Shown: positions 3,866-33,276 of the stretch, in pieces | How positions within the stretch are numbered: the first letter of the stretch is position 1 | Layout of the letters: every line of letters begins with the position of its first letter | Assembly (NCBI GenBank): GCA_963675595.2 | Contig: CAXXLZ010000001.1 | Span: 448,001 to 512,000, forward strand | Source of the DNA: Thermodesulfobacteriota bacterium | GTDB lineage: Bacteria; Desulfobacterota; Desulfarculia; JACQYL01 | DNA length: 64,000 nt | Direction: 5' to 3' | Program-made: the position numbers and the translations under genes | Notes under the pieces: generated by a model | Seen by the model: only the letters and a program-made list of their open reading frames with translations | The model's database searches: none | Told to the model about the DNA's origin: nothing

Positions 3866-5221
3866 ATGCGCTGTCTCTTTGTTAATCCACAAATCGGCGA
3901 CTTTTTCGAGGGGCTGACTCCCGGGCAGGTGCCCTTGCTCAAAAGGGTGGTGGCCGGCAGCAGAACGTTGCGGGAACGCCTCGAATTCAGCCGCAAAGCC
4001 CTGTCGTCGTTAGGACTCCTCACCGCGGCGACTGTGGGCTCCGGAGTTCGGCCCGGCGTACATTTCGACTTTATCGACGAGAATCTGGATGCGCGGGCGG
4101 TGGAAGACGAGCTCGAGCAGGGAGTGGACCTTCTTGCTCTGGGCGGTACCGTCTATCAGATGAATCGCATCCTGGCCTTGATCCGGGAAGCGGTTAAGCG
4201 GAAGATTCCCGTTGTGGTGGGCGGCGCTGCGGCGATGACCTTCCCGGACCTGTTTATGCGGAAAGGCGTCTCCGTCGTTCTTGGAGAGAGTGAGCCACTT
4301 TTCCCGGAATTCTTGACCGATTGGGAAAAGGGCGCTCCCAAAGGCAGGTACGAGTCGCATTCCAATGCCGGTATGGATCTCAAACACTCTCCCGTGCCGG
4401 ACTTCTCTCTGGCCGAGACGTACGACCACACCTTCGTCGGGATTCAGACGAGCCGGGGCTGTCCCTATCACTGTGAATTCTGTCAAGTCTCCGGGATGCT
4501 TGGAGACACCTACCGACGAAAACCCTTGGAGCGTATCGTGGAAGAAACACGGCGGGTGAAGTCTCTGTGGCCCGATGCGTTCTTTTTCTTCTATGACAAC
4601 AATTTTTTTGCCGACCGTGAGTTCGCGCGCGGTGTCCTTTTAAGTCTATCCCGCGAAGGCGTAAAGCTGGGGCGGTGGGGCACCAACGCCGACGCTTCGG
4701 TGTACGAAGACGGGGAGCTGCTGGATTTGGCGATGAGCCTCGGTCCTCTGGATTATCTGGGTATCGGGTTCGAATCTCTTTCCGGGGACAGCCTGAGCAC
4801 CATAAAGAATCGGAAGAAAGCCGGCCTTCTGAAGAAGTACGATGAGGTTGTAGCGGCCCTTAAGGCCAAAGGTGTGGGCGTTTTCGGATATTTCATGTTC
4901 GGGTTCGAAAACGGCACGGCGGGCGATCTGGAAGCGGCGGTCCAATTTATTCTTCATCACGATATTGACGCCCAAATCAGCCGCCTTGTTCCCATGCCCG
5001 GAACCCGTCTTTATGATCGACTACTGGACGAGGTCCGGGAACGATCCGGTGCGGTGAGCAGAGGGCCTTTAGGACGTTGGAATCAAGTGCGGGAATTGCT
5101 TCTGGAGAAGAGCGGCTTTACTTTGCTCGGCCTTACCGAGTTGCTGGCCGGAGCCTATGAACGGATCTACGACGATTCCAGGCGCGCTTCGGCTCTCCCG
5201 CTGCCTGCTCCCTTTCTTTGA
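3866..5221 (+). CDS. Cobalamin-binding radical SAM protein (1)
   Basis: N-terminal B12-binding Rossmann-like region (LGLLT...IDENL...VVVGG), QTSRGCPYHCEFC (CxxxCxxC), IGFES, FMFGF, PMPGT. Confidence 0.9.
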   Translation: MRCLFVNPQIGDFFEGLTPGQVPLLKRVVAGSRTLRERLEFSRKALSSLGLLTAATVGSGVRPGVHFDFIDENLDARAVEDELEQGVDLLALGGTVYQMNRILALIREAVKRKIPVVVGGAAAMTFPDLFMRKGVSVVLGESEPLFPEFLTDWEKGAPKGRYESHSNAGMDLKHSPVPDFSLAETYDHTFVGIQTSRGCPYHCEFCQVSGMLGDTYRRKPLERIVEETRRVKSLWPDAFFFFYDNNFFADREFARGVLLSLSREGVKLGRWGTNADASVYEDGELLDLAMSLGPLDYLGIGFESLSGDSLSTIKNRKKAGLLKKYDEVVAALKAKGVGVFGYFMFGFENGTAGDLEAAVQFILHHDIDAQISRLVPMPGTRLYDRLLDEVRERSGAVSRGPLGRWNQVRELLLEKSGFTLLGLTELLAGAYERIYDDSRRASALPLPAPFL

Positions 5222-5257
5222 CGGCGCCGCCGCACTATCCCGTGTTTAGGAGCTGAA

Positions 5258-8200
5258 TTGCATTCGGACGAGGAACATTATCGCCGTTGGAAAGGGGAAT
5301 TGCAAACGGCCGAGGCCGTGGCGGTCGTGGGACTGGCCGCCCGGCTCCCCGGGGCTTCCGATATCCTGCGGTTCTGGAGGAACCTGGAGTCGGCCAGGGA
5401 CTGCATCACGGAAGTGACCCGTTGGAACCACGAATCGCTGTTTTCAACCAACCGGGAAGAGCCGGGAAAGACTTACTGTAAATGGGGGGGCTTCCTCGAC
5501 AGTGTGGACCGTTTCGATTCGGGATTCTTTCAGGTATCCCCGGCCCAGGCCCTCGAAATGGACCCAAGGCAGCGGCTGTTTCTGGAAGTCGCCTGGGAAG
5601 CCATCGAGAACGCGGGCATACCGGCGAGAGACCTCGCCGGCTCAAAGACCGGTGTGTTCGTGGGGGCTTCGAACAATCAGTACCTTCATCTATGGGGAAG
5701 CTCCGGTCTCGGAAGAATGAACGGTCTGGACAATACCGGCGCCGGTATCGCCAATCGCGTGTCCTTCTTCCTGGATTTGCGGGGACCGAGCACCGCGGTG
5801 GACACCACCTGCTCTTCTTCGATGACGGCGGTTCACACAGCCTGCCGGAGCCTGCTTTCGGGCGAATCGGAAACCGCGCTGGCCGGGGGAGTTCATCTGA
5901 ATCTTCTTCCGGAATATTACCTGACCATGAGCCGGATGCGCCTCCTGGCGTCCGAGGGGAAGCACCGGGTACTGGACCGACGGGCCGACGGCTTCATACC
6001 CGGAGAAGGCGTCGCGGTTGTGGTGCTCAAGCCGTTGGACCGGGCAATCCGCGACGGAGATACGATTCATGCGGTCATTCGGGGCTCGGCCGTGAATTAC
6101 TCCGGCAGGACGGGCCATTTGACGGAGCCGTCCCCGGAGGCCGAGAAGGAGGTGGTGGCCGAAGCCTTGGCCCGGTCGGATGTGGACCCGGAAAGCGTCT
6201 CTTATATCGAGCTCAACGGGGCGGGTACGGTCCTGGGCGATTCCGCGGAGGCCAACGCGCTTGGGGAGATATTCGGCGGGAATCGGAGCGGTCCCCTGTT
6301 CCTGGGCTCGGTGAAGAGCGGCATCGGCAACCTCGAGGCCGCCTCCGGCTTGGTGGGAATGATCAAAGTGATCCTGTCCATGCGTTTCCGAACCTTGCCC
6401 GCCATGCTTCATTTCGAGCAACCCAACCGGTTCGTTCGGTGGCGGGAGCTACCTTTTCAGGTGGTTTCGGAAACCGTACCGTGGGATGAGCGTTGTCGTC
6501 CCTTTCGTGCCGGGGTGAGTTCCTTCGGAGTGGGTGGAGCCAACGTACATGTCGTGCTCGAAGAGTGCCCCCGAGACATGGGAAACAAGGGACTCCCGGG
6601 CACCGTTCACCTATCACGGCCGCGTGAGGTTGATGAACGCCCCAGGCTCTTCGTCTGTTCGGCCCGGTCTCGTGAGGCGCTGAAACAGGGGCTGAGCAGA
6701 CTGTACCAAACGGTGGCGGAACGGATAGGCCCCGACGACCTTGGGAATCTGGCCTACACTCTGGCTGCGGGCAGGGAGCATTTCTCCCATCGTTTGGCCT
6801 GGGTCGTCTCCACCGGGGATGAGCTGCTTTCCGCCATGCGCCGATGCATGGAAACGGAAACATGGGAAAGTCTTTCCGAGGAGGAAGGGTGCTTTTACGG
6901 GGTGGCACCGACAACGAATACAAGGCGAAAAAAATCCTTCCCATGGATGGCCGAGGGAAAAAAGGAGGCGGCATCCGCCCGTCGTAACCCTGAGTTCGTA
7001 TTCGCCTTTGCGGCCTTCCGACCCGAGGATACGGCTTCATGGCGGGATGTGGAGTCTTGCGGAGCACCGGCTTGGATCCGCAAGTCCCTCATGGAACGGA
7101 AAGGCAAGGTGAACGCACTCCTGGACCGCTTTTTGTCGTCTGCGCGAGAGCGAGGCTTCACGCTTTCCAGCCAAGTCGCCGATAAGATCGAATGGGTGCT
7201 TCGAGGCATGGCGTTTCAGGAAACCGCAGCGCGCTTTCTATGGGAACTCGGTGTTCGGCCCGTCCGGACCGTGGCGGTCGGGTGGGGGGAATATGCGAAA
7301 CACTGCTTCGAGAATCCCGATGAATTGGAGACGATCTGCTCGGACTTGATGAACCGGGCGTCCTTGGACGAGCCGTTCATGGGAGAGTCCGATCCGCCTT
7401 TTGGTGTTTCCGACCCTGATGTTTTTGTTTTTTCGCCCGCATCGGTGCTTCGAGGCGGCGAGCTGTTGGGTCGGGCCGCCCGAGCCCACGTGCGGGGAGT
7501 GAGCCTCCGGTGGGAGTTGTCGACGGACGACGGTCTCAAACGCAAGTTGGCGTTACCCTCCTATCCTTTCGAGGGGCGGAGGTATTGGCCCGTTCCGGAC
7601 GGTGTCGAGCCGACAGGATCCGAGGCCTTGGAAGTCGGCGTGGAGAGGGAAGCGGCCGAGAACGCCAACCGCGCTTCGACGGATGTGGGGCCGGTTCGCT
7701 CCGAGGACCTTGCAGAGCGGATTAGTTCCGTTTTCATGCACGGCATGGTGGAGAAACTGGGCTTTCGCCCTGAAGAAATCGATGTGGACCGGCCGTTGGA
7801 GGCCTATGGATTCGACTCCATTTTCCTGGTTTCCTGCCTGGAGGAGTTGGAGCGGTCTTTGGGTGTGGTCATCAGCCGTTTCGAGGTCACGGATGCATCG
7901 ACTCTTCGGGGTATCGTGGAATGTTGCGTCTCCGTGGTCCTTCGGAAAAGTCCTGCTTCGGGCACCATTCGCCACACGTTTTCGGTGGGTACCCGCCGAA
8001 CCGATCGGAACGACTCCGAGGAGAGAATCGCAGTGGTGGGGATGGCGGGACGTTTTCCGGGAGCGGACGACCTGGACGAATACTGGGAGAACCTAATTTC
8101 CGCTCGGGAGTCCATTGTGGAGGTTCCACAGGAACGCTTCGACCTGTCTGCGCTCTACGACCCGGATTCCAGAAAGCCGGGGAAGACGGTCTCGAAATGG

Positions 8201-9307
8201 GCGGGGCTCATCCGGGATATCGATTCCTTCGACGCTGCCGGCTTCCACGTGCATCCCAGAGCGCTGCGGAGCATGGACCCGCAACAACGGCTTCTCCTAC
8301 AGGAGGCGAAAAAAGCCCTCACGGACGCCGGGTACGAGCCCGGAAGCGGTCTTCCCAAGCGAGTGGGTGTCTACGTCGGCGTGAGCGCCCATGAATACGC
8401 GTGGCGGCTGCTGCGCGACGGAAAGCCGCTGGATCATTACGCGGGTCTGGGAACGGCCCGATCCATGGCGGCGAACCGGATATCTCATTTCTTCGGTTTT
8501 ACGGGGCCGAGCCTCACCGTGGATACGGCCTGTTCCTCCTCTTTGGCCGCCGTTCACCTGGCGGTGCGGGCTCTGCAAAGAGGGGAATGCGACGTCGCTC
8601 TGGCAGGCGGCGTCAACTTGATTCTGGACCCGTCGGCGTTCTTGATCTTCAGCAAGGCGGGTGTGCTTTCCCCCTCGGGGAGTTGCAGGGTATTCGACGA
8701 CGGTGGGGACGGGTACGTGCGCGGAGAAGCGGCGGGCGTGGTGGTACTTGAAACTCTGGATCGGGCCTTGCGTAATGAGGACGGAATCCGAGGAGTGGTG
8801 CTGGGCTCGGCGCTCAATCATAACGGCGAAAACTTCAGCATCACCGCGCCGAGTCTCCGCGGGCAAATTGCTCTGCTGGAGGAGGTCTACGGAGGCACGG
8901 GCGTCGATCCGGGTTCGATTTCCTACGTGGAGGCCGGAAGCACGGGGAGCAGGGAAGGCGATCCTTTGGAGACGAGGGCTCTCCTCTTCGTGCTGGATGG
9001 GTCGTCGTCTCCCGTGTCGTGCGCCTTGGGGTCCGTCAAACCCAATATCGGACACGCCGAGGCGGCATCGGGTATCGCAGGGTTGCTCAAAGTACTGCTT
9101 GCCCTGCAACGAAAAACCATTCCGCCTTTAGTGATCCATTCGGCCATGAACCGGGCGATCGATCTTTCGGCTTCGCGATTGTTCATTCCGCATGGGCCTC
9201 TCGGGTGGCCCGTGGGCGAACTCCCGAGACGTGCCGCCGTCACTTCCTTCGGGTACGGGGGAGCCAACGCGCATTTGGTAGTGGAAGAGGCGCCGTCGGC
9301 CGACTGA
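5258..9307 (+). CDS. Type I PKS-like protein: KS0 - eroded AT - ACP - KS0
   Basis: KS1 has MDPRQR, DTTCSSS, ELNGAGT and KSGIGNLE. It is followed by the KS-AT linker (LAYTLAAGREHF), LPSYPFEGRRYW and an ACP (YGFDSI). KS2 has MDPQQR, DTACSSS, EAGSTGS and KPNIGHAE. TTG start with AGGAG RBS. Confidence 0.92.
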   Translation: MHSDEEHYRRWKGELQTAEAVAVVGLAARLPGASDILRFWRNLESARDCITEVTRWNHESLFSTNREEPGKTYCKWGGFLDSVDRFDSGFFQVSPAQALEMDPRQRLFLEVAWEAIENAGIPARDLAGSKTGVFVGASNNQYLHLWGSSGLGRMNGLDNTGAGIANRVSFFLDLRGPSTAVDTTCSSSMTAVHTACRSLLSGESETALAGGVHLNLLPEYYLTMSRMRLLASEGKHRVLDRRADGFIPGEGVAVVVLKPLDRAIRDGDTIHAVIRGSAVNYSGRTGHLTEPSPEAEKEVVAEALARSDVDPESVSYIELNGAGTVLGDSAEANALGEIFGGNRSGPLFLGSVKSGIGNLEAASGLVGMIKVILSMRFRTLPAMLHFEQPNRFVRWRELPFQVVSETVPWDERCRPFRAGVSSFGVGGANVHVVLEECPRDMGNKGLPGTVHLSRPREVDERPRLFVCSARSREALKQGLSRLYQTVAERIGPDDLGNLAYTLAAGREHFSHRLAWVVSTGDELLSAMRRCMETETWESLSEEEGCFYGVAPTTNTRRKKSFPWMAEGKKEAASARRNPEFVFAFAAFRPEDTASWRDVESCGAPAWIRKSLMERKGKVNALLDRFLSSARERGFTLSSQVADKIEWVLRGMAFQETAARFLWELGVRPVRTVAVGWGEYAKHCFENPDELETICSDLMNRASLDEPFMGESDPPFGVSDPDVFVFSPASVLRGGELLGRAARAHVRGVSLRWELSTDDGLKRKLALPSYPFEGRRYWPVPDGVEPTGSEALEVGVEREAAENANRASTDVGPVRSEDLAERISSVFMHGMVEKLGFRPEEIDVDRPLEAYGFDSIFLVSCLEELERSLGVVISRFEVTDASTLRGIVECCVSVVLRKSPASGTIRHTFSVGTRRTDRNDSEERIAVVGMAGRFPGADDLDEYWENLISARESIVEVPQERFDLSALYDPDSRKPGKTVSKWAGLIRDIDSFDAAGFHVHPRALRSMDPQQRLLLQEAKKALTDAGYEPGSGLPKRVGVYVGVSAHEYAWRLLRDGKPLDHYAGLGTARSMAANRISHFFGFTGPSLTVDTACSSSLAAVHLAVRALQRGECDVALAGGVNLILDPSAFLIFSKAGVLSPSGSCRVFDDGGDGYVRGEAAGVVVLETLDRALRNEDGIRGVVLGSALNHNGENFSITAPSLRGQIALLEEVYGGTGVDPGSISYVEAGSTGSREGDPLETRALLFVLDGSSSPVSCALGSVKPNIGHAEAASGIAGLLKVLLALQRKTIPPLVIHSAMNRAIDLSASRLFIPHGPLGWPVGELPRRAAVTSFGYGGANAHLVVEEAPSAD

Positions 9308-9397
9308 ATGTGAGTCGCGCTTCCGCGGATCGAGGTGTTTCCCATGGACCGCAGCGGAAAAGCATCTCTGCGACTTTGAGGCAAAACGGAGTCCTGT

Positions 9398-10729
9398 TTG
9401 GTTGTTTTGCTGGTGAATCCCAACCGGGTTAAGCCTCTAGTCCCTCCGTTGGGACTGGAATACTTGTCCGATGCGCTGCGCCTTGCCGGGCACGAAGTGC
9501 TTTTCTTCGATCTGGGATTCCGGCCTCCCGCGTCTTTGTTCGAGCTGGTTCGGCGGAAGAAGCCTGACATCATCGGGGTTTCCATCCGAAACCTGGACGA
9601 CGTCACCCTGCTTCGGAAGCACAACTACGTGCCCGGCATCGTCCGTCTGGTGAGGGAACTCCAACGTGTCTCGGATGCCCGGATCGTTCTGGGGGGGGCC
9701 GGCTTCTCGATTCTACCCCGAGAGCTCATGGAAGTCACGGGTGCGGATTTCGGGATTGCCGGTGATGGGGAAGAAGCCATGGTGGGGCTTCTGAACGATC
9801 TCGGTCAACCGCAACATATTCCCCGGGTTTGGTTCCGGGAGGGTGGTCCTTCGGGGCCGGTCCGTTTTTCTTTCGAGGGGCTTTCCGGGTCCTGGGGAGC
9901 CGGTTGCTCGCCACGTTCACTGCTGGACTACGCAGGATATCTGCGTCGAGGGAGTTCGTGCAACGTTCAGACCAAACGAGGTTGCACTCACCGTTGTCTA
10001 TACTGTCCAGAGCCGCGTGTTATGGGACGGATGATGCGGCTGCGCCCCGCGGAAGCGGTTGCGGAGGAGTTCGAAATCCTCGCTTCCATGGGCGTCCGGG
10101 AGCGGGTCTTTTTGGTGGACTCGGAATTTAATCTTGTTGAGGAACATGCCCTGGAAGTCTGTCGGATTCTGACGGAAAGGGCCTCCGGGGTGAAATGGGT
10201 ATGTTCCATGACCCCGAAATACGTGACGGAAGAACTCATCGGCTTGATGAAACGGGCGGGTTGTGACATGGTGATTTGGAGCGTGGACTCCGTATCCGAT
10301 GCAACACTGCAATCCCTGAGAAAAGACGTAGAGGAGACGGATGTTTTTCGAGTGTGCGGCTGGTGCGAAAAGGCGGGCTTGCCTTATTGTCTGGCACTGC
10401 TGCTTGGCGGACCGGCGGAAACGCCGGACACATTGAAGGCAACCTTTCGGAACGCCGGGAAGACTCGGGCGGCGTTTATCGCCGTGGGTGTCGGCTTGAG
10501 AATCTATCCAGGTACCGGTTTGCACGAAGTGGCCTTGGCGGAGGGCCAAGTGACCCGAGAAACGGATTTCCTGCAGCCTGTGTACTATCGAGAAGCTTGG
10601 GTGCGCGACACGTTGATTCCTCTGGTTCGAACGCAGATCGCAGAGGAGAGAAGGGCGGTGATGTTCGGCTCTCGACCGGACGTGACGGTCGAGGCGGAGA
10701 TTCGGAAGGTTTATCCCGTGCCCTTTTGA
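9398..10729 (+). CDS. Cobalamin-binding radical SAM protein (2)
   Basis: LVNPN..PLVPPLGLEYL, IGVSIRNLDD, LGGAGFS, QTKRGCTHRCLYC, DSEFN, GLRIYPGT. Confidence 0.9.
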   Translation: MVVLLVNPNRVKPLVPPLGLEYLSDALRLAGHEVLFFDLGFRPPASLFELVRRKKPDIIGVSIRNLDDVTLLRKHNYVPGIVRLVRELQRVSDARIVLGGAGFSILPRELMEVTGADFGIAGDGEEAMVGLLNDLGQPQHIPRVWFREGGPSGPVRFSFEGLSGSWGAGCSPRSLLDYAGYLRRGSSCNVQTKRGCTHRCLYCPEPRVMGRMMRLRPAEAVAEEFEILASMGVRERVFLVDSEFNLVEEHALEVCRILTERASGVKWVCSMTPKYVTEELIGLMKRAGCDMVIWSVDSVSDATLQSLRKDVEETDVFRVCGWCEKAGLPYCLALLLGGPAETPDTLKATFRNAGKTRAAFIAVGVGLRIYPGTGLHEVALAEGQVTRETDFLQPVYYREAWVRDTLIPLVRTQIAEERRAVMFGSRPDVTVEAEIRKVYPVPF

Positions 10730-10821
10730 ACATGGTGTCGAACCGACCTGAAACAGTCCCCACCAGTAGATCCGAAGTATCCGACCGGACTGCCGACGGC
10801 CTCATCTGAACGGATTCAATC

Positions 10822-12351
10822 ATGATTCAATTCACTTCCTTGGTTCCCAGATGGATCGGTGGAACTTCGCTTTCTCTGGTGGTGCTGCGAAGTTTCCTGC
10901 TTCATCACATGCCTCGGTTGAACATCGGCTATGGAACCTATCTGTGCGACGACGATCCGGAGGAAATCCTCGCGGGCGTCTACTCCCCGGATACGCGGGT
11001 CTACGCCTTCTCGGCGTATATGTGGAACCTCGAACTCACCTTGGATCTATGCCGGCGTCTCAAAGACCGAAATCCTCATTGTTTCGCTTTGCTGGGTGGA
11101 CCCACCGCCTCCTTTTCAGCCGACGCAATCCTGTCCTCGAATCCGTGGGTGGACCTCATTGTCAAGGGGGAGGGAGAGCTTCCTCTGCTGGAGTTGATTT
11201 CACGCATGGACCGAGGGGAGGAGGATTTTTCCGACATTCCCAATCTCGCCTACCGCCTGGACGGCCGACGAGTGGACACCCCGGCCATACCCACCATCCT
11301 CAATCTCGAAGACCAGCATTATGCTTTGGACGTCGACATGTTCGCGGGTGTGTCCACGGTTTATTATGAGACTTCCAGAGGATGCGTGTTCAAATGCCGC
11401 TATTGTTCCTGGAACGTCAACCAGTCGGGGATCAAACGTATCCGGCCGTACCCTCTGGAAAAGGTGATGCGCGAGCTGAGGCTGCTTTTCCGGCAGGAGG
11501 GGCTGGAAATGTTGCTGCTCACGGATTCGAATATTCTCCTGGGGGGCGAGCGGACCAAAGCCGTCTTCTCCGAGATCAACGCGCTCAACCAGGGTCGTCG
11601 AAGCAACGGCCTCCCCATGGTCAAGATCAACTTTGAATTCAATCCGGAGCATCTTACGGACGATCTCCTTCCGGAGATCAAGAAACTGCATGTCGAGAAC
11701 TACCCCATAGGTCTTCAAAGCGTGAATAAGGAGGTGCTCACGGAGGCGGGCCGGCCTTTCCACAGGGATAAGTACCTCGATGGGCTGAACAGGCTGCGAG
11801 AGAAGGCTGGGGCCGCCGTTTTGGTGGAGATTATTTACGGGCTGCCCAAAGATACGTTGGAAGGTTTCAGACGAACTCTTGAGTTTGTCCTGTCGGAGTT
11901 GAAAGCGGAGCTTTTTGTTTGTTACCGGTACTCGGTGCTGCCGGGTTCCGAGTTCTGGGATCGGAAGGAGCGTTACGGAATCCGCCATCTGGACGCGCCG
12001 CCCTATACGATCCTGAGTTCGGACTCCTTCCCGGAAGAAGACTTGGAAAAGGCCCAGGAGTTGGTTTATTACCTTCAGATCATTTACCGGGTCTTTCGGA
12101 GCCTGAAAAAGACCGTGGAAAACTCCGTGGAGGGAGACAAGCTGCCGGTGTATGAAGCGATCATACGCCGGTTTTCCGACAAGTATGGCGAGATACTCCG
12201 CCCCAAACTGATCTATGACGACGGTTTTCTGGACGATGTGGCCCGTTTGCGTTCGCGGGAGTTTTCCGAAACCCGTCGCAAGATGCTCTCCGAGGCCAGG
12301 GAGATCGTCAAAGAATATGCAGCCTCCAGGGAGGCTGAACGGAAATCATGA
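10822..12351 (+). CDS. Cobalamin-binding radical SAM protein (3)
   Basis: FSAYMWN, LGGPTAS, GEGE, YETSRGCVFKCRYC, GLQS, GLPKDT, LPGS. Confidence 0.9.
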   Translation: MIQFTSLVPRWIGGTSLSLVVLRSFLLHHMPRLNIGYGTYLCDDDPEEILAGVYSPDTRVYAFSAYMWNLELTLDLCRRLKDRNPHCFALLGGPTASFSADAILSSNPWVDLIVKGEGELPLLELISRMDRGEEDFSDIPNLAYRLDGRRVDTPAIPTILNLEDQHYALDVDMFAGVSTVYYETSRGCVFKCRYCSWNVNQSGIKRIRPYPLEKVMRELRLLFRQEGLEMLLLTDSNILLGGERTKAVFSEINALNQGRRSNGLPMVKINFEFNPEHLTDDLLPEIKKLHVENYPIGLQSVNKEVLTEAGRPFHRDKYLDGLNRLREKAGAAVLVEIIYGLPKDTLEGFRRTLEFVLSELKAELFVCYRYSVLPGSEFWDRKERYGIRHLDAPPYTILSSDSFPEEDLEKAQELVYYLQIIYRVFRSLKKTVENSVEGDKLPVYEAIIRRFSDKYGEILRPKLIYDDGFLDDVARLRSREFSETRRKMLSEAREIVKEYAASREAERKS

Positions 12352-13892: not shown

Positions 13893-13989
13893 CGACGGCT
13901 GATCGTCGACGGTCCACTGGCGCGGTTCGATCCCTGAAGGATCGAAATCCGGATCGTACGGTGCCGACACTCATTCGGGAGAGAGGAAC

Positions 13990-14397: not shown

Positions 14398-14662
14398 CAA
14401 CTCGAATCCTCATGGGAAAATCACCTTGGGATGGAATTTCCGAGAGCCGGTTCCGGTAGACCTTGCCGGGCAATCAAAGGCGCTCTTATGGAGGCAAAGT
14501 CGTTCATGCGAAGTTTTGGCCAAGAGCGTTGCCCAATGGTGCCCCGACTCTTGTCCGGCTTGAGAGGCTTCACGTCCTTCCCCGCTTTCGGACTCTTATG
14601 GATGGGGCCGGCGGCCGAGCGTGCGCTTCGAGCTCTTCTTTTCGAGGACCTTTCGCGTGCCG

Positions 14663-23594: not shown

Positions 23595-23731
23595 TCGCGG
23601 CGCACATTGCAGTAACGAGGGACACGGCGCGAAGCATCGCATCGTGTTAACCGACGGCCCACCAATAGGTGGCCGGCCCTTGACGAACACCGGAGGCGCG
23701 TACGGCTGCGAATAAGGACGGGAACGACTCG

Positions 23732-25300: not shown

Positions 25301-25302
25301 GC

Positions 25303-26247: not shown

Positions 26248-26482
26248 ATCGGTTTATAGGTTTATACGGGATGAAATGAACCATGGAGAGGAGTTTCCTC
26301 TGGAGACCGACCTGATTCAACAGGGGCTGATCGACTCCATGGGCGTGATGAAACTTATCGGCTTCCTTGAAACGACCTTCGGCATCCAGATCGAATTGGA
26401 CCGGGTAAGCGCGGAGCATTTTCAGTCCGTGGGGGCCGTGGCGGATCTGGTGGCCTCATGCGAGAAGGGCGAGACTGCGTGA
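26225..26482 (+). CDS. Stand-alone acyl/aminoacyl carrier protein
   Basis: DLIQQGLIDSMGVMKLIGFLETTFGI. GTG start at 26225 after AGGAGAGG; the ORF-track start at 26102 is likely too long. Confidence 0.88.
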   Translation: MDIESTRESVYRFIRDEMNHGEEFPLETDLIQQGLIDSMGVMKLIGFLETTFGIQIELDRVSAEHFQSVGAVADLVASCEKGETA

Positions 26483-26751
26483 TGATGGAAAGAGAAGGGG
26501 TCCTTGCCCTGATCGAAGAGTTTATCAGGGATACGTGCAACATCCCGGCAGACACTCCCGGATTCACCAGATCGTGCGATCTTTTTGAGGAAGGGTTCGT
26601 GGATTCCATGGCCCTGGTGAGGCTCGTCGCTTTCCTGGAATCCGAATTCGATGTTGAAATCGAAGAAGAGAATTTATTCGACGAGCGCTTCCTGACCATC
26701 GAAGGACAGGGAGACTTGGTCCTGGAACTGAAGAATTCAGTGGGGCGGTAA
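26482..26751 (+). CDS. Stand-alone acyl/aminoacyl carrier protein
   Basis: DLFEEGFVDSMALVRLVAFLESEFDV. TGATG coupling to the previous ACP. Confidence 0.88.
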   Translation: MMEREGVLALIEEFIRDTCNIPADTPGFTRSCDLFEEGFVDSMALVRLVAFLESEFDVEIEEENLFDERFLTIEGQGDLVLELKNSVGR

Positions 26752-27073
26752 GGCGAGGACGGAAGAACGTCCGAGCCTGTCATGAGTTCGCTGCACCCCC
26801 GATAGGATGCGCGTTTGGGTCGTCCTTGGACGCTTCCATGAGCCTCGTCCTCGATTTGGAGCCTCGGTCCCGTGAGGGCGGGCCATAGTCCCCGTCCTGC
26901 GCGCAAGAACACACAGATACCGAGAGTCCCCTTAGGATACGGCGGAGTTGGGAGAACAGTCACGATTCCGGCGTCCGATTCTTTCCTGATGGATGTTTCA
27001 AATGTATTATTCCCCGACCACTCCGTGGACGCGCACCTGAAAGGGTTCATGGCAAGCTGTGGTGAGGTCATCC

Positions 27074-30067
27074 ATGTCGGCTGACATGAGTCACCGGGAC
27101 ATTGCCGTCATCGGCATGGCGTTTCGTTTGCCCGGAGGAGACGATCCGGAGGTTTTCCGGGATCGGCTTCTTGCGTCGGAAGACTGCCTGGGAACGTGGC
27201 CGGATTCCATCCGCAGCGGTGCGCGGGGTCCCGTGAGGCCTGCCGGAATCATCCAAGGAGTCGACCTGTTCGACGCTGCGTATTTTGGAATCGCTCCTCG
27301 CGAAGCCGCCTTGACGGATCCAAGGCGGCGTTTGGTTCTCGAGATGTCCGCCACCGCGCTGGAGACCTGCGGCTATGGAGGAGATCGTCTTCGAGGTTCC
27401 GACACCGGGGTGTTCCTCGGCGTGAGCAACAATGGAGACTACGGCACCGGGGGCGCCGCCGGGGGCTTGGGAGCACTCAACGTATCGGACGCCATGATCG
27501 CTCACGAGGTGTCCCGATTCTTTGATTTCACGGGACCCAGCCAGGTGGTGGACACCCTCTGTTCTTCGGCCTTGGCGGCGGTGCACCAAGCCTGTTGCGC
27601 CTTGCGGGAAGGTCGTTGCTCAACGGCTCTGGCCGGAGGCGTCAGCCTGCTTCTTTCGGTGAGTCATTTCGAAGCCCTGGAAGGCATGGGACTGCTGTCG
27701 CGATCCGGAAAATGTCGAACCTTCGACGTGGATGCCGACGGATTCGTCCTGGGAGAAGGCGTGGGCGTGTTTCTCCTGAAGTCTTTGAAAGCCGCACTTC
27801 GAGACGGGGACCCGCTTTGGGGCGTGATCAAAGGCGGTGCCGTGGCTTTCAACGGGCGTGGAGAACACCCCTTGGCCCTGCGTGCCGAAGCGGTGGAGCG
27901 AGTGGTGACGCGGGCCATGAGGGACGCGGGGACCGCTCCGGCCGCCATCTCCTTTATCGAAACCGCCGGAACCGGGACCCCCATGGGAGACGCCGCCGAG
28001 GTTCGAGGGCTGCGTTCGGCCTTTGGTTCCGCGGTCGGTAAGGCACCTTTCTGTGGATTGGGAGCCGTGAAGACCCGTGTGGGCAACCTCGAAGCGGCCT
28101 CGGGGATTGCCGCACTGGTAAAGACTTTGTTGATGATGCGGGGGAAATTCATTGCGGCGAACCTGAACTTCCATCGTGTGAATCCGCTTATCCGGCTCAA
28201 AGGATCGCCCTTCCGTCTCTGCAACGAGCTCGACGAATGGACGACGGCCAACCGGGCGCCCAGGAGGGCGGGAGTTTCCGCTTTGGGCATAGGAGGAGCT
28301 CATTACCACCTGATCCTGGAGGAGCCGCCTTCGGAAGGGTTTACCCTGGGACCGAGTCGACCGCGAACATCCGAGCCGCTCTTGCTGTGCCTTTCGGCCG
28401 GGAGCCTTTTCCAACTCAGAGAGCTTTGCCGCAGGTACCGGCGCAGGCTCGAGGATCTTTCGGAATGCACGCCCGAGGAGCTTTGTCACACCCACAACAC
28501 CGGAAGCGGAGATCTGCCGGTTCGGCTGGCCTTGACCGCCCGAGACGGGGAGGAACTTATTGGCCTTCTGAAGCGGGGCGAGTTCGACGACCCCGTGCCC
28601 CGACACGGTTTGGAGGGCATGTTCTTCCACGACGGTTACGCTGGGGATATCCGAAGGAAACGGAACCCCCTCAAAGATCTTCGTTCTCCGAGCGGTGAGG
28701 GCGGGCGGGCCGATCCCGAACGCCTTGCCGGACGAACCGGACTGATTCAGGGTGATTTGGTGTCGTGCGAACATCCCGAGACTGCACTCCAATCCATCGG
28801 CGTTTCGCTCGGTGAATGGGGGGTCAGGGTGGGCCCTTCGATAAGCGCTGCGGCCGGCGACACGCAGCCCGACGCCGAGGCGATGGTGCCGGACCGCCTG
28901 CGCGAATGCGTCTCCCGAGGTATTCGCACTTTTGTAACCATGGGGCTGTCGGACGATTTTCGCAACCGGATTTCGGAAGAGGTGCCGGAAGCGTTTCTGA
29001 TTCCGTGGCCCGGCTCGGGCGCCGATCTTATGGAGCGCAGGCGTCTCGCGGCCGCACTTTACGCACATGGCGCCCGTCTCGATTTCGAAATGCTTCAGGG
29101 GAGCGGCAACCTTCGCAAAGCGATGTTGCCGCCGTACCCTTTTGCCCGGAAATCTTTTTGGAGAACGGCTCCCGATGATGGGCTGCATAAGGCTTCGCCG
29201 GCCGGGACTTGTGCTGCGGAGAGGATTTCACCTGAAGACCTCGCCGGGATGCCCCCATCGGAGTTGAAGGAACGGGTGGAGGGCTTTCTGAGGGAGGCGG
29301 CCTGCGAAAGCGCGGGCTTGGATTGCGGGAAAGAAGAGATCGTGCTCTTCTCGGATTGGTGCTTGGACTCACTGGCGCGCGTTCAACTCGCCCGTCGGGT
29401 CGAGTCTCGGTTCGGAGTCCGCATTGACCTTCAGGCGTTTCTGCGGCATGACCACGTGGCTCTGCTGGCCGAATACGTGGTGGGCCGGATTCGGTATGGG
29501 AGCGTGGAAAAGCCCGTGGAGCCCCGAGAGGATGATCATCGGGCTCGGGTCATCCTGGAGACGGCTTCCGCCGCTCATTGGGAGGCGGTGCGTGCCTGGC
29601 TGAACGACGAGGGAGTCAACCAGTGGCTGGATCCGTTTTTCCAGGAAGGATTCGGCGCTCGAGAATACGCCTACTTCCTGAAACAACGGGATCGGAATAC
29701 CTGGGTCATCGTGGAGGACGGAATTCCGGTGGGAATCTGCGGGCTGGTCCAGGTGGACCTGCGCAACCTCGGCGCGGAAACCTGGATCGTGGTGGGCGAC
29801 CTCTCGGCGCGTCTCAGGGGTGCGGCCGTTGCCGCGGGCGAAGCTTTGTGTGGAAAGGCGTTTCTTGAATTGGGCCTAAGAACCTTGAACGCCAAGGTGA
29901 GATGGGACAATGTTCCCGCCTTGGAAATGACGGAGTACTCGGGTTGGAGGCGGGTGGGCACCCTTAGAAACTCCCTGAAGGTGGGAGATGCCTTCCACGA
30001 CAGGGAGCTTTTCGAACTGACCCGTGAGGATTTCGAGGACCGGCGGAATCGAGGCGAAACTCCATGA
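27074..30067 (+). CDS. Type I PKS-like protein: KS0 - eroded AT - ACP - C-terminal GNAT (RimJ/RimL-like)
   Basis: KS has TDPRRR, DTLCSSA, ETAGTGT and KTRVGNLE. Then LPPYPFARKSFW and an ACP (WCLDSL). The C-terminus (AFLELGLRTLNAKV..DN..ALEMTEYSGWRRVGTLR) is typical of RimL-type GNATs. Confidence 0.88.
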   Translation: MSADMSHRDIAVIGMAFRLPGGDDPEVFRDRLLASEDCLGTWPDSIRSGARGPVRPAGIIQGVDLFDAAYFGIAPREAALTDPRRRLVLEMSATALETCGYGGDRLRGSDTGVFLGVSNNGDYGTGGAAGGLGALNVSDAMIAHEVSRFFDFTGPSQVVDTLCSSALAAVHQACCALREGRCSTALAGGVSLLLSVSHFEALEGMGLLSRSGKCRTFDVDADGFVLGEGVGVFLLKSLKAALRDGDPLWGVIKGGAVAFNGRGEHPLALRAEAVERVVTRAMRDAGTAPAAISFIETAGTGTPMGDAAEVRGLRSAFGSAVGKAPFCGLGAVKTRVGNLEAASGIAALVKTLLMMRGKFIAANLNFHRVNPLIRLKGSPFRLCNELDEWTTANRAPRRAGVSALGIGGAHYHLILEEPPSEGFTLGPSRPRTSEPLLLCLSAGSLFQLRELCRRYRRRLEDLSECTPEELCHTHNTGSGDLPVRLALTARDGEELIGLLKRGEFDDPVPRHGLEGMFFHDGYAGDIRRKRNPLKDLRSPSGEGGRADPERLAGRTGLIQGDLVSCEHPETALQSIGVSLGEWGVRVGPSISAAAGDTQPDAEAMVPDRLRECVSRGIRTFVTMGLSDDFRNRISEEVPEAFLIPWPGSGADLMERRRLAAALYAHGARLDFEMLQGSGNLRKAMLPPYPFARKSFWRTAPDDGLHKASPAGTCAAERISPEDLAGMPPSELKERVEGFLREAACESAGLDCGKEEIVLFSDWCLDSLARVQLARRVESRFGVRIDLQAFLRHDHVALLAEYVVGRIRYGSVEKPVEPREDDHRARVILETASAAHWEAVRAWLNDEGVNQWLDPFFQEGFGAREYAYFLKQRDRNTWVIVEDGIPVGICGLVQVDLRNLGAETWIVVGDLSARLRGAAVAAGEALCGKAFLELGLRTLNAKVRWDNVPALEMTEYSGWRRVGTLRNSLKVGDAFHDRELFELTREDFEDRRNRGETP

Positions 30068-31623
30068 ATACCTTGCCGGAGTGCATTCGAGCGGCCGCAG
30101 CAGCGGGCGACAAAGAAGCCCTCGTGTTCGGAAAGGAACGGCTTACTTACGGCGATCTCGATAGGCGTTCGAGCCGTTTGGCCGGACTGCTCCGGCGGGC
30201 CGGGGTGCGCAAAGGAGACCGGGTCGGCCTCGTAATGCCCAATTGCGTGGAGAGTGTCGTTGCATTCACGGCGATCCTCAAGATGGGGGCCGTGGAAGTG
30301 GGATTCCATCTCGAGACATCGGTGGAAACCCTGGCGCGGGCGTTCCGCGAGGTGGACGCATCTCTGGTGATTTGCGCGCGCACGCCGGTCTCCAAGATGA
30401 AAGACCTGATCAGAGCCTTACCCTCCCTCAACTGGGTCATCGACGGCATCCCTCCCGATGTGGGAACAAGCGAGGGAGCATTCATCGACCTGGCGGAGGC
30501 CGAGAGGGAGCACGATGATTTTGATTTCGGCCTGGACGATCCTTCCACTCCCCTTGTCCAGTTTACGTCGGGATCCACGGGAGAGCCCAGGGGCGTCGTG
30601 TTGACCCAGGCCGGGTTTCTCGCCGCGTCGCGGGCCAGGAATGAATTCCTGCATCTGGACCGGGACGACCGGATTCTCGATATTCTCAAACTCTCCCATT
30701 CCTGCGGCAAGTCCCTGCTTTTCGACGCCTTTTACCTGGGGGCCTGTCTCGTGCTGGGTAAAGGACTCGTCCCTCCCTCCGCGTTCATCAAAACGGTGGT
30801 GGGTGAGAAGGTGAGTCTGATTACCGGCCCGCCCTACCTGTTCGAAGTGCTCCTGAAGATTCGCAACGATGTTCGGGTCATGGAAGCGCTGAAGAATTCG
30901 CTGAGATTCCTGGAGGTGGGCATGGCGCATCCATCCGTGAGGCTGCTCAAGGATTTGAGGAGCGTGTTTCCCTGGACGTCTCTGGTGAATCGTTATGGGC
31001 TCACGGAAAATGCCGGTGCGGCTTCTCTCCAGGTTCACGCGTCCGAAGACGGAGACAGGTTTGGGACCATGGGACGCGGCTGTTCCGTCATGCAATTGGA
31101 TCTGGTGGACGAATCCACCGGTCTGCCCTCGGATTCCAACGCGGGCACGATCCGATTGCGAGGCGAGGCTCTCATGCTGGGCTACTGGGACGAATGGAGC
31201 GCGGGACGCAGGACGGATTACGCTGTTTCCGGTTTCGTTACCGGAGACCGGGCCGAAAGGGACTCGGAAGGGTTTTTCTATTTCAAAGGACGCGGCGACC
31301 ATCTGTTGAAAGTGTGCGGGGAACGGATCGCTCCCGAAGAAATCGAGGAAGCGGTCTGCGCACTCCCCGGAATTGCCGAGGTCACGGTTTTCGGTGTGGA
31401 AGACGACTTGACGGGTGACCGAATTGTCTGCCTTTACCGTGCGGCCGGGGAGGTAGCGCCTGAATCGGTCAAGGCTCACTGCGCCCGATCGTTGCCTTCC
31501 TACAAAGTCCCCGCCGTGGTTCTTGTTTCCAGCGAACCCATCCCCCGCACCGCCACCGGAAAGATATCCAGGCGGCTGGCCCGGGAAGCCTACCTGTCCG
31601 GCGGGTATACCGGAGAGGAATGA
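30064..31623 (+). CDS. AMP-dependent acyl/aminoacyl ligase 2
   Basis: FTSGSTGEPRG, RYGLTE, VTGD, GRGD, PRTATGK. Confidence 0.92.
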   Translation: MNTLPECIRAAAAAGDKEALVFGKERLTYGDLDRRSSRLAGLLRRAGVRKGDRVGLVMPNCVESVVAFTAILKMGAVEVGFHLETSVETLARAFREVDASLVICARTPVSKMKDLIRALPSLNWVIDGIPPDVGTSEGAFIDLAEAEREHDDFDFGLDDPSTPLVQFTSGSTGEPRGVVLTQAGFLAASRARNEFLHLDRDDRILDILKLSHSCGKSLLFDAFYLGACLVLGKGLVPPSAFIKTVVGEKVSLITGPPYLFEVLLKIRNDVRVMEALKNSLRFLEVGMAHPSVRLLKDLRSVFPWTSLVNRYGLTENAGAASLQVHASEDGDRFGTMGRGCSVMQLDLVDESTGLPSDSNAGTIRLRGEALMLGYWDEWSAGRRTDYAVSGFVTGDRAERDSEGFFYFKGRGDHLLKVCGERIAPEEIEEAVCALPGIAEVTVFGVEDDLTGDRIVCLYRAAGEVAPESVKAHCARSLPSYKVPAVVLVSSEPIPRTATGKISRRLAREAYLSGGYTGEE

Positions 31624-31675
31624 AATACTTCCCGCGGCGTATGGGCAAAAAGGGAGTGGTCGATTGAAACGAGGT

Positions 31676-32980
31676 ATGGAAACGGCCCGTCGTTTCTTCC
31701 GTAGCTTCGGCGAGGAACTGGTCATCGGAGGCGTTCCGGCTTCCGAAATCGCGGACATGGCCGGCACCCCGTGTTATGTCTATGATTTGGATCTGATGCG
31801 GCGGAATCTGGAAGGATTGCGGGAAGGATTGGACCCCGCCGTCGAGATTTTCTATTCCGTCAAAGCCAATCCGGCTTTGGCTTTGTGCCGGGAATTCGCG
31901 AAACTCGGCCTGGGGGCCGAAGTGGCCTCGCTTGGAGAACTGGAAACGGCGCTGGAGGCGGGATTCTCTCCGGATCGTATCGTGTTCGCAGGTCCGGGAA
32001 AGACTTTCGAGGAGCTGAAGGAGAGCGTTGAACGGGGCATTCTCGCATTAAACGTCGAGTCCGTTGATGAAGCCGTCGACATTGATGACACGGCGGGGCG
32101 GCTAGGTAAGAGGGCGGGAATATGTGTACGAGTGAACCCTGAAAGCAGCCCGGTGCGGACACACCAGCGTATGGGGGGAGTGCCTTCGCCTTTCGGGATC
32201 GATGAGGAACAACTTCCCGAAGTTCTGGATCGGATTCGTGAGCTTTCCAGAGTTGAACTGCGGGGAATCCACGTCTACGTGGGAAATCAGATATTCGATG
32301 CGGATTTGGCGGTGGAGAACGCCAAGCATACTTTGGACATTGCACGCAAGGCCTCGCAGCATTTAGGCGGCAGGGCCTTGGAATTGATTGATCTCGGTGG
32401 AGGTCTGGGGGTTCCCTATTATAAAAACGAGTCGTATTTGGATGTCGCGCGTTTTAAGGAAGGGCTCAACCGACTGGTTGCAGACGCGCGGTCGGAATTA
32501 TTGTTTGGACACTCTCGTTTCATTTTGGAGCTTGGCAGATACCTCGTCGGGATTTCGGGAATATTAATTACGCGCGTGCTCAGAGTGAAGACATCCCGGG
32601 GAAAGCGCTTCGCCGTGGTGGATGGCGGAATGCATTGCTGCAGCATCGCCACGGGGAATTTGGGACAGAAGATTCAGAGGAAATTTCTGCTTTGTCCCGC
32701 GACGCGCATGGATTCCACGGTTTTTTCGCCGATCGATGTGGTGGGCCCGTTGTGCACTCCCATGGATTCCTTCGGACACGATTATGACGCGCCGGAACTG
32801 GAAGAGGGAGACCTGTTGGGCGTGCTTTTCGTGGGAGCTTACGGGCTGACCGCGAGTCCGACCCGGTTCCTCAGCAGATTTTCTCCCGCTGAGGCGAGCG
32901 TTTCCCAAGGCAGGGCGGTGGTAACCCGACAAAGGGAAGACCTCGCCGATGTGCTGAAATATCAACGGTTATTTGGATGA
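31676..32980 (+). CDS. Fold-type III PLP-dependent decarboxylase (LysA/BtrK/VinO-like)
   Basis: GTPCYVYD, YSVKANP (PLP Lys), EVASLGE, FAGPGK, HVYVG, DLGGG, ELGRYLV, VGPLC, GAYG. ATG at 31676 follows GAGGT. Confidence 0.9.
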   Translation: METARRFFRSFGEELVIGGVPASEIADMAGTPCYVYDLDLMRRNLEGLREGLDPAVEIFYSVKANPALALCREFAKLGLGAEVASLGELETALEAGFSPDRIVFAGPGKTFEELKESVERGILALNVESVDEAVDIDDTAGRLGKRAGICVRVNPESSPVRTHQRMGGVPSPFGIDEEQLPEVLDRIRELSRVELRGIHVYVGNQIFDADLAVENAKHTLDIARKASQHLGGRALELIDLGGGLGVPYYKNESYLDVARFKEGLNRLVADARSELLFGHSRFILELGRYLVGISGILITRVLRVKTSRGKRFAVVDGGMHCCSIATGNLGQKIQRKFLLCPATRMDSTVFSPIDVVGPLCTPMDSFGHDYDAPELEEGDLLGVLFVGAYGLTASPTRFLSRFSPAEASVSQGRAVVTRQREDLADVLKYQRLFG

Positions 32981-33276
32981 GACCTGCACCGGAGAATGAT
33001 GGGATGAGTTGGAGCAAGAAAGAGATCGTGAAAGTCTTGATGGGCTTTGTGTGCAATGAGCTGGGAGTGGACGACCCGGATTTCGGGCCCTCCAGCGACC
33101 TGTTTGAAGACGGCTACGTGGACTCCATTCATCTGGAACGGTTTTTCAGCTTCATTGAAGAAACCTTCGGTATTGTCCTTGAAGAAGACAACTTTTTTGA
33201 TCCCCGAATTGCCACCCTTGAGGGTCTGTCCGACCTGGTGCTGGAGGCCGGACCTAAGACCGCTCCGTCCGCCTGA
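32977..33276 (+). CDS. Stand-alone acyl/aminoacyl carrier protein
   Basis: DLFEDGYVDSIHLERFFSFIEETFGI. Similar to the 26482 ACP. Confidence 0.88.
   Translation: MRPAPENDGMSWSKKEIVKVLMGFVCNELGVDDPDFGPSSDLFEDGYVDSIHLERFFSFIEETFGIVLEEDNFFDPRIATLEGLSDLVLEAGPKTAPSA

Follow-up and report, generated by a model that had tools for sequence, protein, structure and literature searches.

We describe a cluster of 22 co-oriented genes at positions 3866-33276 of a 64,000-nucleotide stretch, hereafter the window, from a Thermodesulfobacteriota bacterium (GenBank assembly GCA_963675595.2, contig CAXXLZ010000001.1, positions 448,001 to 512,000 of the forward strand). We tentatively favor reading it, at a little under an even chance, as a functional, evolutionarily maintained operon for non-canonical thiotemplated biosynthesis in an anaerobic, dsrAB-bearing bacterium, and not as a polyketide synthase (PKS) that extends chains. 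It combines cobalamin (B12)-binding radical S-adenosylmethionine enzymes (B12-rSAMs), carrier domains, and ketosynthase (KS) domains without the chain-extending residues, and is therefore a probable non-standard assembly line for a methylated metabolite of amide type. What is new, on our best reading, is an orphan cluster of the non-canonical thiotemplated kind, its logic being already known from related systems. Little is known of the chemistry of natural products in strict anaerobes, and the few solved pathways, such as that of closthioamide, broke the textbook rules of nonribosomal peptide synthetases (NRPSs) and PKSs.

The genes are tightly packed on the + strand in an operon-like array of ~30 kb, with start and stop codons overlapping by 4-8 bases at five junctions (12348/12351, 18718/18725, 21380/21383, 30064/30067, and 32977/32980). 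They encode five B12-rSAMs, three KS domains, six carrier domains (four free and two embedded), an Sfp-type phosphopantetheinyl transferase (PPTase), and two ANL adenylating ligases; also present are a fold-type-III pyridoxal phosphate (PLP) decarboxylase, a PP-loop protein, an HGD-D pair, an acyl-CoA dehydrogenase (ACAD), a class-I methyltransferase, and an Amidohydro_2 protein. An earlier sequence-only reading of the window had listed this inventory, which is borne out by the open reading frame (ORF) list, Pfam, and NCBIfam. That reading had likewise reported no intact acyltransferase (AT), ketoreductase (KR), dehydratase (DH), enoylreductase (ER), thioesterase (TE), or NRPS condensation domain, and indeed Pfam found none of these families at E ≤ 0.001 in the 26 ORFs of the cluster region; another 29 window ORFs were scanned too.

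Ketosynthase domains and their active sites

The three KS domains are divided between a KS-ACP-KS protein (ACP, acyl carrier protein), which carries KS1 and KS2, and a KS-ACP-GNAT protein, which carries KS3. When aligned to the solved trans-AT KS structures 7zma and 4qyr, each of them retains the active-site Cys, whereas the two decarboxylation histidines are both replaced by Asn in KS1 and by Ala and Asn in KS3, and in KS2 the first is replaced by Gly while the second is kept. The Cys-His-His triad is complete in none of the three domains, each having lost the histidine of the HGTGT motif and retained the Cys, as is typical of non-elongating (KS0) domains. Their nearest solved structures (7zma, 4qyr, PksL, and PksJ) come from AT-less or trans-AT PKSs, which places them in the trans-AT KS group.

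These substitutions are family-wide. In the KS-ACP-KS family, the residues at all six positions are identical in 6/6 sequences (the window protein and five homologs of 44-50% identity). Among 10 representatives of the KS-ACP-GNAT family (27-43% identity), the Cys is present in all, the first-site His in none, and the second site is Asn in nine and His in one. That the same KS substitutions recur across 6/6 and 10/10 relatives argues for a selected state and not for decay. The proposal that this is no ordinary PKS and that its KS domains are non-extending thus gains support, with one or both histidines missing from each domain, the losses family-wide, and no AT in the window. The single match to the AT family (PF00698) in the genome is FabD-like and lies on a different contig from the window; of 24 genomic matches to PF00109, only three fall in open frames of >501 aa, and these are the KS domains of the cluster.

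The stretches from KS to ACP bear the YPFxxxxYW post-linker motif, and can be interpreted as AT-like remnants without the GHSxG serine. The insert of ~140 aa in the KS-ACP-KS protein (residues ~580-740) is absent from its five relatives; these in turn have a C-terminal AT-like extension of ~200-300 aa after KS2, called an AT by Pfam in relative P0140, that the window protein does not have.

The sequence-only reading had counted two GNAT-type units. One of these, the C-terminal domain of the KS-ACP-GNAT protein, is firm (Acetyltransf_3, 35.7 bits versus a cut-off of 25.4), with weak and uninformative matches in a PDB sequence search. The other, a 329-aa protein, has no NCBIfam match and no Pfam match even at E ≤ 1; it is GNAT-like only by its language-model (ESM) features, which lead to GNAT clusters of ~350 aa (score 0.97), and by a low-confidence fold (AlphaFold2 model, pLDDT 43.9).

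Distribution and conservation

The conserved family of Cys-only KS-ACP-GNAT proteins is the most testable novelty of the cluster. We searched 1.84 billion representative proteins exhaustively by HMMER with the ACP-GNAT part, obtaining 671 matches at E ≤ 0.001, of which the top ten alone have the fused form (one fragment, and nine proteins that are 864-1045 aa long and align at the C-terminus); the family comprises about ten 50%-identity clusters in this set. A search of 5.8 billion proteins with the complete KS-ACP-GNAT protein, in which only the 8000 candidates sharing most words were scored, gave among the matches listed a fragment at 94% and, at 41-43%, three relatives of full length; the other matches listed are ordinary PKSs that align with the KS half only. 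Two members with the fused form carry source labels, one of a Desulfobacterales metagenome-assembled genome (MAG) and one of a Spirochaetales MAG. Among the same 5.8 billion proteins, the only relatives of the 329-aa protein are a fragment at 84% and, at 37%, a protein from a Spirochaetales-labelled MAG.

The cluster is rare, having been found in one of 61 related genomes, the window's own. With the ACP-GNAT query, 15 of 401 genomes of the phylum were matched, the 14 others by stand-alone GNATs in frames of 172-245 aa, so the cluster is absent from the 400 other genomes by this query. A metagenome scan with the KS-ACP-GNAT alignment rested on generic KS motifs only; in the best 80 of its 584 matches, alignment ends by query residue 506, and none reaches the ACP-GNAT part, so that the scan yielded no syntenic locus. 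One distant locus probably carries both PKS-like proteins, because contigs of 36,350 bases are reported for both a KS-ACP-GNAT relative (P0008) and a KS-ACP-KS relative (P0145).

Closer relatives (93-94% protein identity) lie on short ENA contigs alongside homologs of the ACAD, the PPTase, and the 329-aa protein. A related strain from another study is collinear with the window over 13300-26499 (425 differences, ~97%) and 26654-33276 (82 differences, ~99%), with indels only in the 14398-14620 spacer and as a compensated -1/+1 pair at 25242/25244. Since ~500 substitutions have accumulated without a frame-breaking indel, the reading frames of the cluster are evidently under constraint. The spacer, which separates ACP1 from the first HGD-D gene, is hypervariable, with dense substitutions at 14436-14603 and +1 and +3 insertions, whereas the flanking genes differ far less; it is therefore non-coding, and may be a regulatory or a decaying stretch.

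We found no published description of the gene set in the literature searched, which leaves out most subscription journals. This agrees with the sequence-only reading, which had recognized no characterized cluster here.

Loading and tailoring genes

The attachment serine, in a DS[LMI] motif, is present in all six carrier domains. ACP2, ACP3, and ACP4 have DltC-type NCBIfam matches below cut-off, and ACP3 and ACP4 are 40% identical; ACP2, whose true start is probably later than 26102, also bears a weak likeness to an ornithine-lipid ACP in NCBIfam (OlsHI-ACP, 43 bits, under cut-off). The two ANL ligases share only 29% identity, which suggests two different substrates. The start of the ligase 2 gene overlaps the stop codon of the KS-ACP-GNAT gene. 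The decarboxylase, whose true start is probably near 31670, is closer to BtrK (2j66/7ru7, the L-glutamyl-[BtrI ACP] decarboxylase; 285.2 bits) than to the best diaminopimelate (DAP) decarboxylase (203.8 bits), and the overlap of its stop codon by the ACP4 gene provides an adjacent, dedicated carrier. The BtrK-like decarboxylase and DltC-like carriers lend support to the thiotemplate idea put forward by the sequence-only reading.

The CxxxCxxC motif is present in all five B12-rSAMs. In rSAM1, the B12-binding domain scores under the Pfam cut-off (27.6 versus 32.1 bits, E 2.8e-6), and its best NCBIfam scores are only ~68 bits. The best solved structure for rSAM2 is TsrM (140.6 bits); those for rSAM4 are the iterative C-methyltransferases CysS (65.6 bits) and TokK (57.8 bits), both modest scores.

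In the HGD-D pair, the beta-like subunit scores 116 bits to BcrC, 113 to the double-cubane family, and 111 to HadC, all below cut-off, and the pair scores alike against subunits of 2-hydroxyisocaproyl-CoA dehydratase and of benzoyl-CoA reductase. The window encodes no activator ATPase for these enzymes; 10 BcrAD/BadFG genes are found elsewhere in the genome. The PP-loop protein scores 52.7 bits to TIGR03573 (WbuX) versus a cut-off of 203, has ‘N-acetyl sugar amidotransferase’ proteins, which act on amide carbonyls, in 17 of its 30 nearest atlas clusters, and has weak, uninformative matches in the PDB sequence search. The ACAD scores best, though below each cut-off, to the acryloyl-CoA reductase AcrC (267.6 bits), cyclohexane-1-carbonyl-CoA dehydrogenase (230 bits), and RedW, a prolyl-peptidyl carrier protein dehydrogenase (184.7 bits); the Amidohydro_2 protein weakly matches the LigW and ACMSD decarboxylases in the PDB (≤42.5 bits). 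The ORFs at 14184-14459, 14431-14673, 26872-27084, and 33320-33877 have no family match; the first two are situated in the hypervariable spacer.

Table 1. Genes of the cluster and of a possible export set, in window coordinates
Coordinates	Strand	Feature	Basis
3866-5221	+	B12-rSAM 1, 451 aa, divergent	Radical_SAM 57 bits; CPYHCEFC at residue 199
5258-9307	+	KS1(C-N-N), linker with ~140-aa insert, ACP, KS2(C-G-H); 1349 aa	Pfam, structure alignment; ACP serine in FDSIF
9398-10729	+	B12-rSAM 2, 443 aa, nearest TIGR04072 ‘lipid biosynthesis/ladderane-type’	297.9 bits versus cut-off 360
10822-12351	+	B12-rSAM 3, 509 aa, KedN5/CysS-like C-methyltransferase type	NF033712 KedN5 103.5 bits versus cut-off 700
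12348-13892	+	B12-rSAM 4, 514 aa, KedN5/CysS/TokK-like	NF033712 106.8 bits
13990-14397	+	Free ACP1, 135 aa, fatty-acid synthase (FAS)/PKS-type	PP-binding 36.9 bits; DSL at residue 32
14621-15793	+	HGD-D subunit, beta-like, Fe-S radical dehydratase/reductase component	PF06050 189 bits
15956-17296	+	HGD-D subunit, alpha-like	PF06050 172 bits; HadB 144 bits
17337-18725	+	B12-rSAM 5, 462 aa	Radical_SAM 69.5, B12-binding 47.7 bits; TIGR04072 86.8, HpnJ 80.4 bits
18718-19422	+	Sfp-type PPTase	4PPT_N 77 bits, ACPS 44 bits
19427-20416	+	Near-orphan 329-aa protein, probably double-GNAT acyltransferase	ESM features
20367-21383	+	PP-loop ATP pyrophosphatase, N-acetyl-sugar-amidotransferase-like	SGGKDS at residues 56-61; Cys137/140/267
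21380-22447	+	S-adenosylmethionine-dependent (O-)methyltransferase	Methyltransf_2 81.9 bits
22452-23594	+	Acyl-CoA/acyl-carrier dehydrogenase, three ACAD domains	Pfam
23732-25300	+	ANL adenylating ligase 1	AMP-binding 216.9 bits; best PDB oxalate-CoA ligase 171 bits
25303-26247	+	Amidohydro_2 metal hydrolase/decarboxylase	PF04909 117 bits
26102-26751	+	Tandem free carriers ACP2 (to 26482) and ACP3 (26458-26751), DltC/PCP-like	PP-binding 25.1, 26.8 bits; DSM serines
27059-30067	+	KS3(C-A-N), vestigial linker, ACP, GNAT (Acetyltransf_3); 1002 aa	Pfam
30064-31623	+	ANL adenylating ligase 2	AMP-binding 219.4 bits; best PDB linear gramicidin synthase adenylation domain 165.6 bits
31523-32980	+	BtrK-like PLP decarboxylase	BtrK 285.2 bits; TIGR03099 375.9 bits versus cut-off 478
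32977-33276	+	Free carrier ACP4, DSI serine	PP-binding 28.7 bits
35310-40707	+	Possible export set: DUF481 outer-membrane protein, HlyD adaptor, MacB-type ABC ATPase, two FtsX/MacB_PCD permeases	Pfam

Proposed pathway

In the pathway that we propose, the substrates, the order of the steps, and the product are predictions from sequence. The PPTase would prime the six carrier domains. Ligase 2 would load an acidic amino acid (Glu or Asp type) by its side-chain carboxylate onto the DltC-like ACP4, and the BtrK-like PLP enzyme would strip the alpha-carboxylate on the carrier, giving an omega-aminoacyl-S-carrier. Ligase 1 would activate a second acid, possibly a 2-hydroxy acid, which the HGD-type Fe-S pair, with its activator in trans, would dehydrate and whose saturation the ACAD would adjust. 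The Cys-only KS domains would accept acyl groups as thioesters and, with the embedded ACPs, serve as stations for holding, gate-keeping, and transfer; at these, the five B12-rSAMs (at least two of the CysS/TokK/KedN5 type) would methylate unactivated carbons. The C-terminal GNAT and the free double-GNAT-like protein would transfer carrier-bound acyl groups onto amines to form amide bonds, a transfer that would also off-load the product, TE being absent. The PP-loop enzyme would adenylate an amide carbonyl to give an amidine or thioamide, and the methyltransferase and Amidohydro_2 enzyme would complete the molecule, which is predicted to be a small C-methylated N-acyl (oligo)amide or lipoamide.

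A bolder version, which we regard as doubtful and which would be an assembly line of a kind not yet described, makes the KS domains with a double histidine loss (C-N-N and C-[A/N]-N) catalysts of bond formation or transfer that, with amide-forming release by the ACP-GNAT part, would replace NRPS condensation and TE domains. Joined to amino acids decarboxylated on carriers and C-methylation of tethered intermediates by B12-rSAMs, this would amount to a strictly anaerobic counterpart of PKS/NRPS systems in a few Desulfobacterales- and Spirochaetales-labelled MAG loci. If the KS domains do catalyze transfer or amide formation, the range of chemistry of the ketosynthase fold would be widened and better genome-mining rules would follow, the present ones being such that these loci would be called broken PKSs or ‘ladderane’; moreover, five B12-rSAMs in a single operon would bring new substrates to a class with few characterized members. 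Were the product an ordinary lipid decoration, the finding would be of local interest only.

Several points weigh against the proposed pathway. The specific NCBIfam matches of the cluster enzymes all score under curated cut-offs, and the enzymes cannot therefore be given substrates. The ligases are about as similar to CoA ligases of the fatty-acyl, oxalyl, and aryl types as to adenylation domains for amino acids, their top NCBIfam match being a long-chain fatty-acid-CoA ligase, and the HGD pair may be a reductase instead of a dehydratase. An ATP-grasp loader (BtrJ/CtaD) is absent, with an ANL ligase upstream of the decarboxylase instead; no ATP-grasp family was found among the 26 and 29 window ORFs scanned. 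Ketosynthases of C-N-N or C-A-N type have no characterized precedent in the literature searched, and for those of the cluster a role as amide or ester synthase cannot be told apart from a merely structural one. The second GNAT was called from language-model features alone, the best similarity of any of the B12-rSAMs points to a family associated with lipid (ladderane-type) clusters, which suits the lipid alternative considered below, and the probable synteny in distant relatives hangs on a coincidence of 36,350-base contigs.

Relation to known systems

The nearest logic, on our best reading by analogy, would be that by which closthioamide and the butirosin side chain are assembled, joined to that of trans-AT KS0-ACP modules. 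Closthioamide of Ruminiclostridium cellulolyticum (CtaC/D/E/F/G/H/I) is a product of NRPS-independent thiotemplated assembly in an anaerobe (PMC7183216, PMC6772006). That system resembles the cluster in its stand-alone carriers and loaders (an acetyl-CoA-synthetase-type ligase loads one carrier), its PLP decarboxylase of the Orn/DAP/Arg family for a carrier-bound acidic amino acid, its Cys-dependent transacylase that joins units, its AANH (PP-loop) enzyme that works on backbone amides, and its anaerobic host. Unlike it, the cluster has no ATP-grasp CtaD and no papain-like CtaG/CtaJ, with Cys-only KS domains and GNATs in their place, and its five B12-rSAMs, HGD pair, and ACAD are without a counterpart in the closthioamide pathway. 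The PP-loop protein has an ATP motif (SGGKDS) as in CtaC-type enzymes, and its three listed cysteines are reminiscent of the Fe-S site in CtaC, a thioamide synthetase (PMC6772006); the likeness is only suggestive, the nearest named families being amidotransferases.

Decarboxylation on a carrier is experimentally established for Glu in butirosin and for Asp in closthioamide (CtaD/CtaF) (PMC7183216). In both pathways the loading enzyme is an ATP-grasp protein. The butirosin pathway to 4-amino-2-hydroxybutyrate (BtrI, BtrJ, and BtrK) is like the cluster in that the decarboxylase, closest to BtrK, is encoded beside a small carrier gene; it is unlike it in loading by ATP-grasp and not by an ANL enzyme, and in having BtrH/BtrG and aminoglycoside genes. 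BtrH and BtrG are the transfer and deprotection enzymes of butirosin biosynthesis. The cluster appears to fall outside BtrJ/CtaD-type systems by its want of an ATP-grasp loader.

Components of the cluster also recur in two other systems. The beta-amino-acid starter of vicenistatin (VinN/VinL/VinO/VinM) is handled by an ANL ligase, a free ACP, and an on-carrier PLP decarboxylase, and mycobactin biosynthesis (MbtK/L/M/N) uses a ligase, an ACP, an acyl-ACP dehydrogenase, and N-acyl transfer by a GNAT. The differences are that VinN (3wvn) scores a modest 106-118 bits to the cluster ligases and is not their top match, that similarity to the MbtN family is weak (45 bits), and that the cluster has no downstream elongating PKS or NRPS.

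The KS0 domains of trans-AT PKSs accept acyl chains and relay them at on-line tailoring steps, as in the alpha-hydroxylation bimodule MmpD/MmpA of mupirocin (PMC10952193). In such KS0-ACP bimodules, a non-elongating trans-AT-type KS is likewise coupled to an ACP and the tethered intermediate is tailored in trans; these bimodules are set among elongating modules, whereas the KS domains of the cluster are all non-elongating (two of three having lost both histidines), the neighborhood encodes no trans-AT, and tailoring would fall to B12-rSAMs.

Alternative explanations

The operon might instead modify an acyl chain of the housekeeping FAS, with FabD and FabF in trans, to give an unusual envelope lipid or aminolipid (branched, cyclized, or ether-type), an explanation that we judge unlikely. 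The B12-rSAMs and HGD pair would then act on acyl-ACP, the GNATs would link the acyl chain to an amino-acid head group, and the MacB/HlyD/DUF481 proteins would move the product to the outer membrane. This would suit the similarity of rSAM2 to TIGR04072 and the matches of rSAM1 and rSAM5 to the same family and to the hopanoid enzyme HpnJ. B12-rSAMs beside ACPs and KS homologs are the defining feature of a putative cluster for ladderane lipids in anammox bacteria (amxACP, FabZ, FabF homologs, and a B12-rSAM; PMC13459092), which is akin to the present cluster in setting a TIGR04072-type B12-rSAM next to ACP and KS-family genes in an anaerobe. The lipid explanation would also suit the ornithine-lipid likeness of ACP2, the long-chain fatty-acid-CoA ligase match, and the presence 2 kb downstream of a MacB-type exporter and an outer-membrane DUF481 protein. 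However, the score of rSAM2 to TIGR04072 (298 bits) is below the cut-off of 360, and Pfam scans of the window found no FabZ, FabF-type KS, desaturase, or glycerol/phosphate acyltransferase. Compared with the ladderane cluster, ours has type I, non-elongating KS domains in place of a type II FabF pair, and amino-acid-handling enzymes besides; its DltC-like carriers, BtrK-like decarboxylase, and PP-loop amidotransferase are of sorts that typically belong to pathways for small molecules. If the cluster made a membrane lipid, more than one of 61 relatives and one of 401 phylum genomes should have it, and an opposite-strand gene parts the exporter from the operon. With its sub-threshold rSAM and no FabZ/FabF, the cluster would appear to lie outside the ladderane type.

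The OlsH/OlsI route to ornithine lipids, prompted by the weak ACP match, was ruled out by the absence of a GH3-like enzyme from the window; such enzymes are reported to make ornithine lipids in planctomycetes (PMC12493201). A locus from a Dehalococcoidales-labelled MAG that was retrieved in the rSAM5 scan was also set aside as a different cluster of multiple rSAMs and GH3, without KS domains or carriers. At 6307-16398 of that locus are three B12-rSAMs (one with a weakly GNAT-like tail), two more rSAMs, and a GH3-family adenylating enzyme.

It is improbable that the locus is pieced together from two or more operons that are unrelated and do not cooperate, such as an exosortase/PEP-CTERM-associated cassette of ligase, decarboxylase, and ACP next to an rSAM/PKS-like set. 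Ligase 2, the decarboxylase, and ACP4 do resemble the exosortase-A-associated TIGR03098 and TIGR03099 (224 and 376 bits), a weak PEP-CTERM motif occurs in the gene that follows downstream, and gaps of 137-307 bases precede the genes at 23732 and 27059. Yet both TIGR scores are below cut-off, ligase 2 overlaps the KS-ACP-GNAT stop codon and the decarboxylase overlaps ACP4, one PPTase stands amid six carrier domains, and 13300-33276 is collinear in the related strain.

A working trans-AT PKS that still elongates, with the housekeeping FabD serving as trans-AT and KS domains that compensate by some other arrangement of catalytic residues, is very improbable. The trans-AT type of the KS domains, the one FabD-like AT in the genome, and the histidine kept in KS2 would fit it, but no KS domain has the C-H-H triad, KR, DH, ER, and TE are missing, only two ACPs are embedded, and the histidine losses are common to all relatives examined, as in non-elongating KS0 domains; by its triad, AT, and processing domains, the cluster would be placed outside the elongating PKSs.

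That a canonical PKS cluster has decayed here to a non-functional remnant, a possibility raised with the sequence-only reading and suggested by AT-like vestiges in the KS-to-ACP stretches, where another residue stands at the serine position of GHSxG, and by the loss of catalytic histidines from all KS domains, is largely refuted by genes that are intact (no internal stop in any of the 22, GC3 0.60-0.73), by five CxxxCxxC motifs and six carrier serines that are likewise intact, by identical KS substitutions in relatives down to 27% identity, and by the absence of frame-breaking indels among the ~500 substitutions in the related strain.

Host and surrounding genes

The host genome (6.8 Mb in three contigs) contains a dsrA gene scoring 585.6 bits versus a cut-off of 392.85, with a dsrB-like gene adjoining. 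The host is plausibly an anaerobe that reduces sulfite or sulfate, a lifestyle that fits because of dsrA and the 10 BcrAD/BadFG activator genes; the anaerobic setting supposed by the sequence-only reading is accordingly upheld as plausible. A full-length catalase (621 bits) is encoded at 50497-52059 (+), in a dsrA-bearing genome rich in oxygen-sensitive radical enzymes.

Just upstream of the operon and divergent from it is a gene for a CobA/CobO/BtuR ATP:corrinoid adenosyltransferase (2674-3246, -), a link to the B12-rSAMs that is suggestive only. No Rfam family reached its gathering score anywhere in the window, and a cobalamin riboswitch was hence not detected. Between the adenosyltransferase gene and mnmG lies a 343-aa ORF (1609-2640, -) with no Pfam match even at E ≤ 1. 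The small ORFs in 3247-3865 include no convincing precursor of the RiPP type (peptides made on the ribosome and modified after translation), and scans of 3200-3900 and 33200-35400 for promoter and terminator consensus found nothing above shuffle expectation.

Downstream, the possible export set is co-oriented with the operon, with the - strand gene 34096-35034 between them; it is possibly the exporter of the cluster product, or else an unrelated Lol/Mac-like system. The 312-aa product of the intervening gene has as its only match a weak C-terminal PEP-CTERM motif (E 0.0015), and the host may have an exosortase system. Two further + strand genes probably encode surface proteins: one of 669 aa (47595-49604) with VWA, thrombospondin type 3 repeats, and an OmpA domain, and one of 1220 aa (52838-56500) whose only match is a divergent InlB B-repeat.

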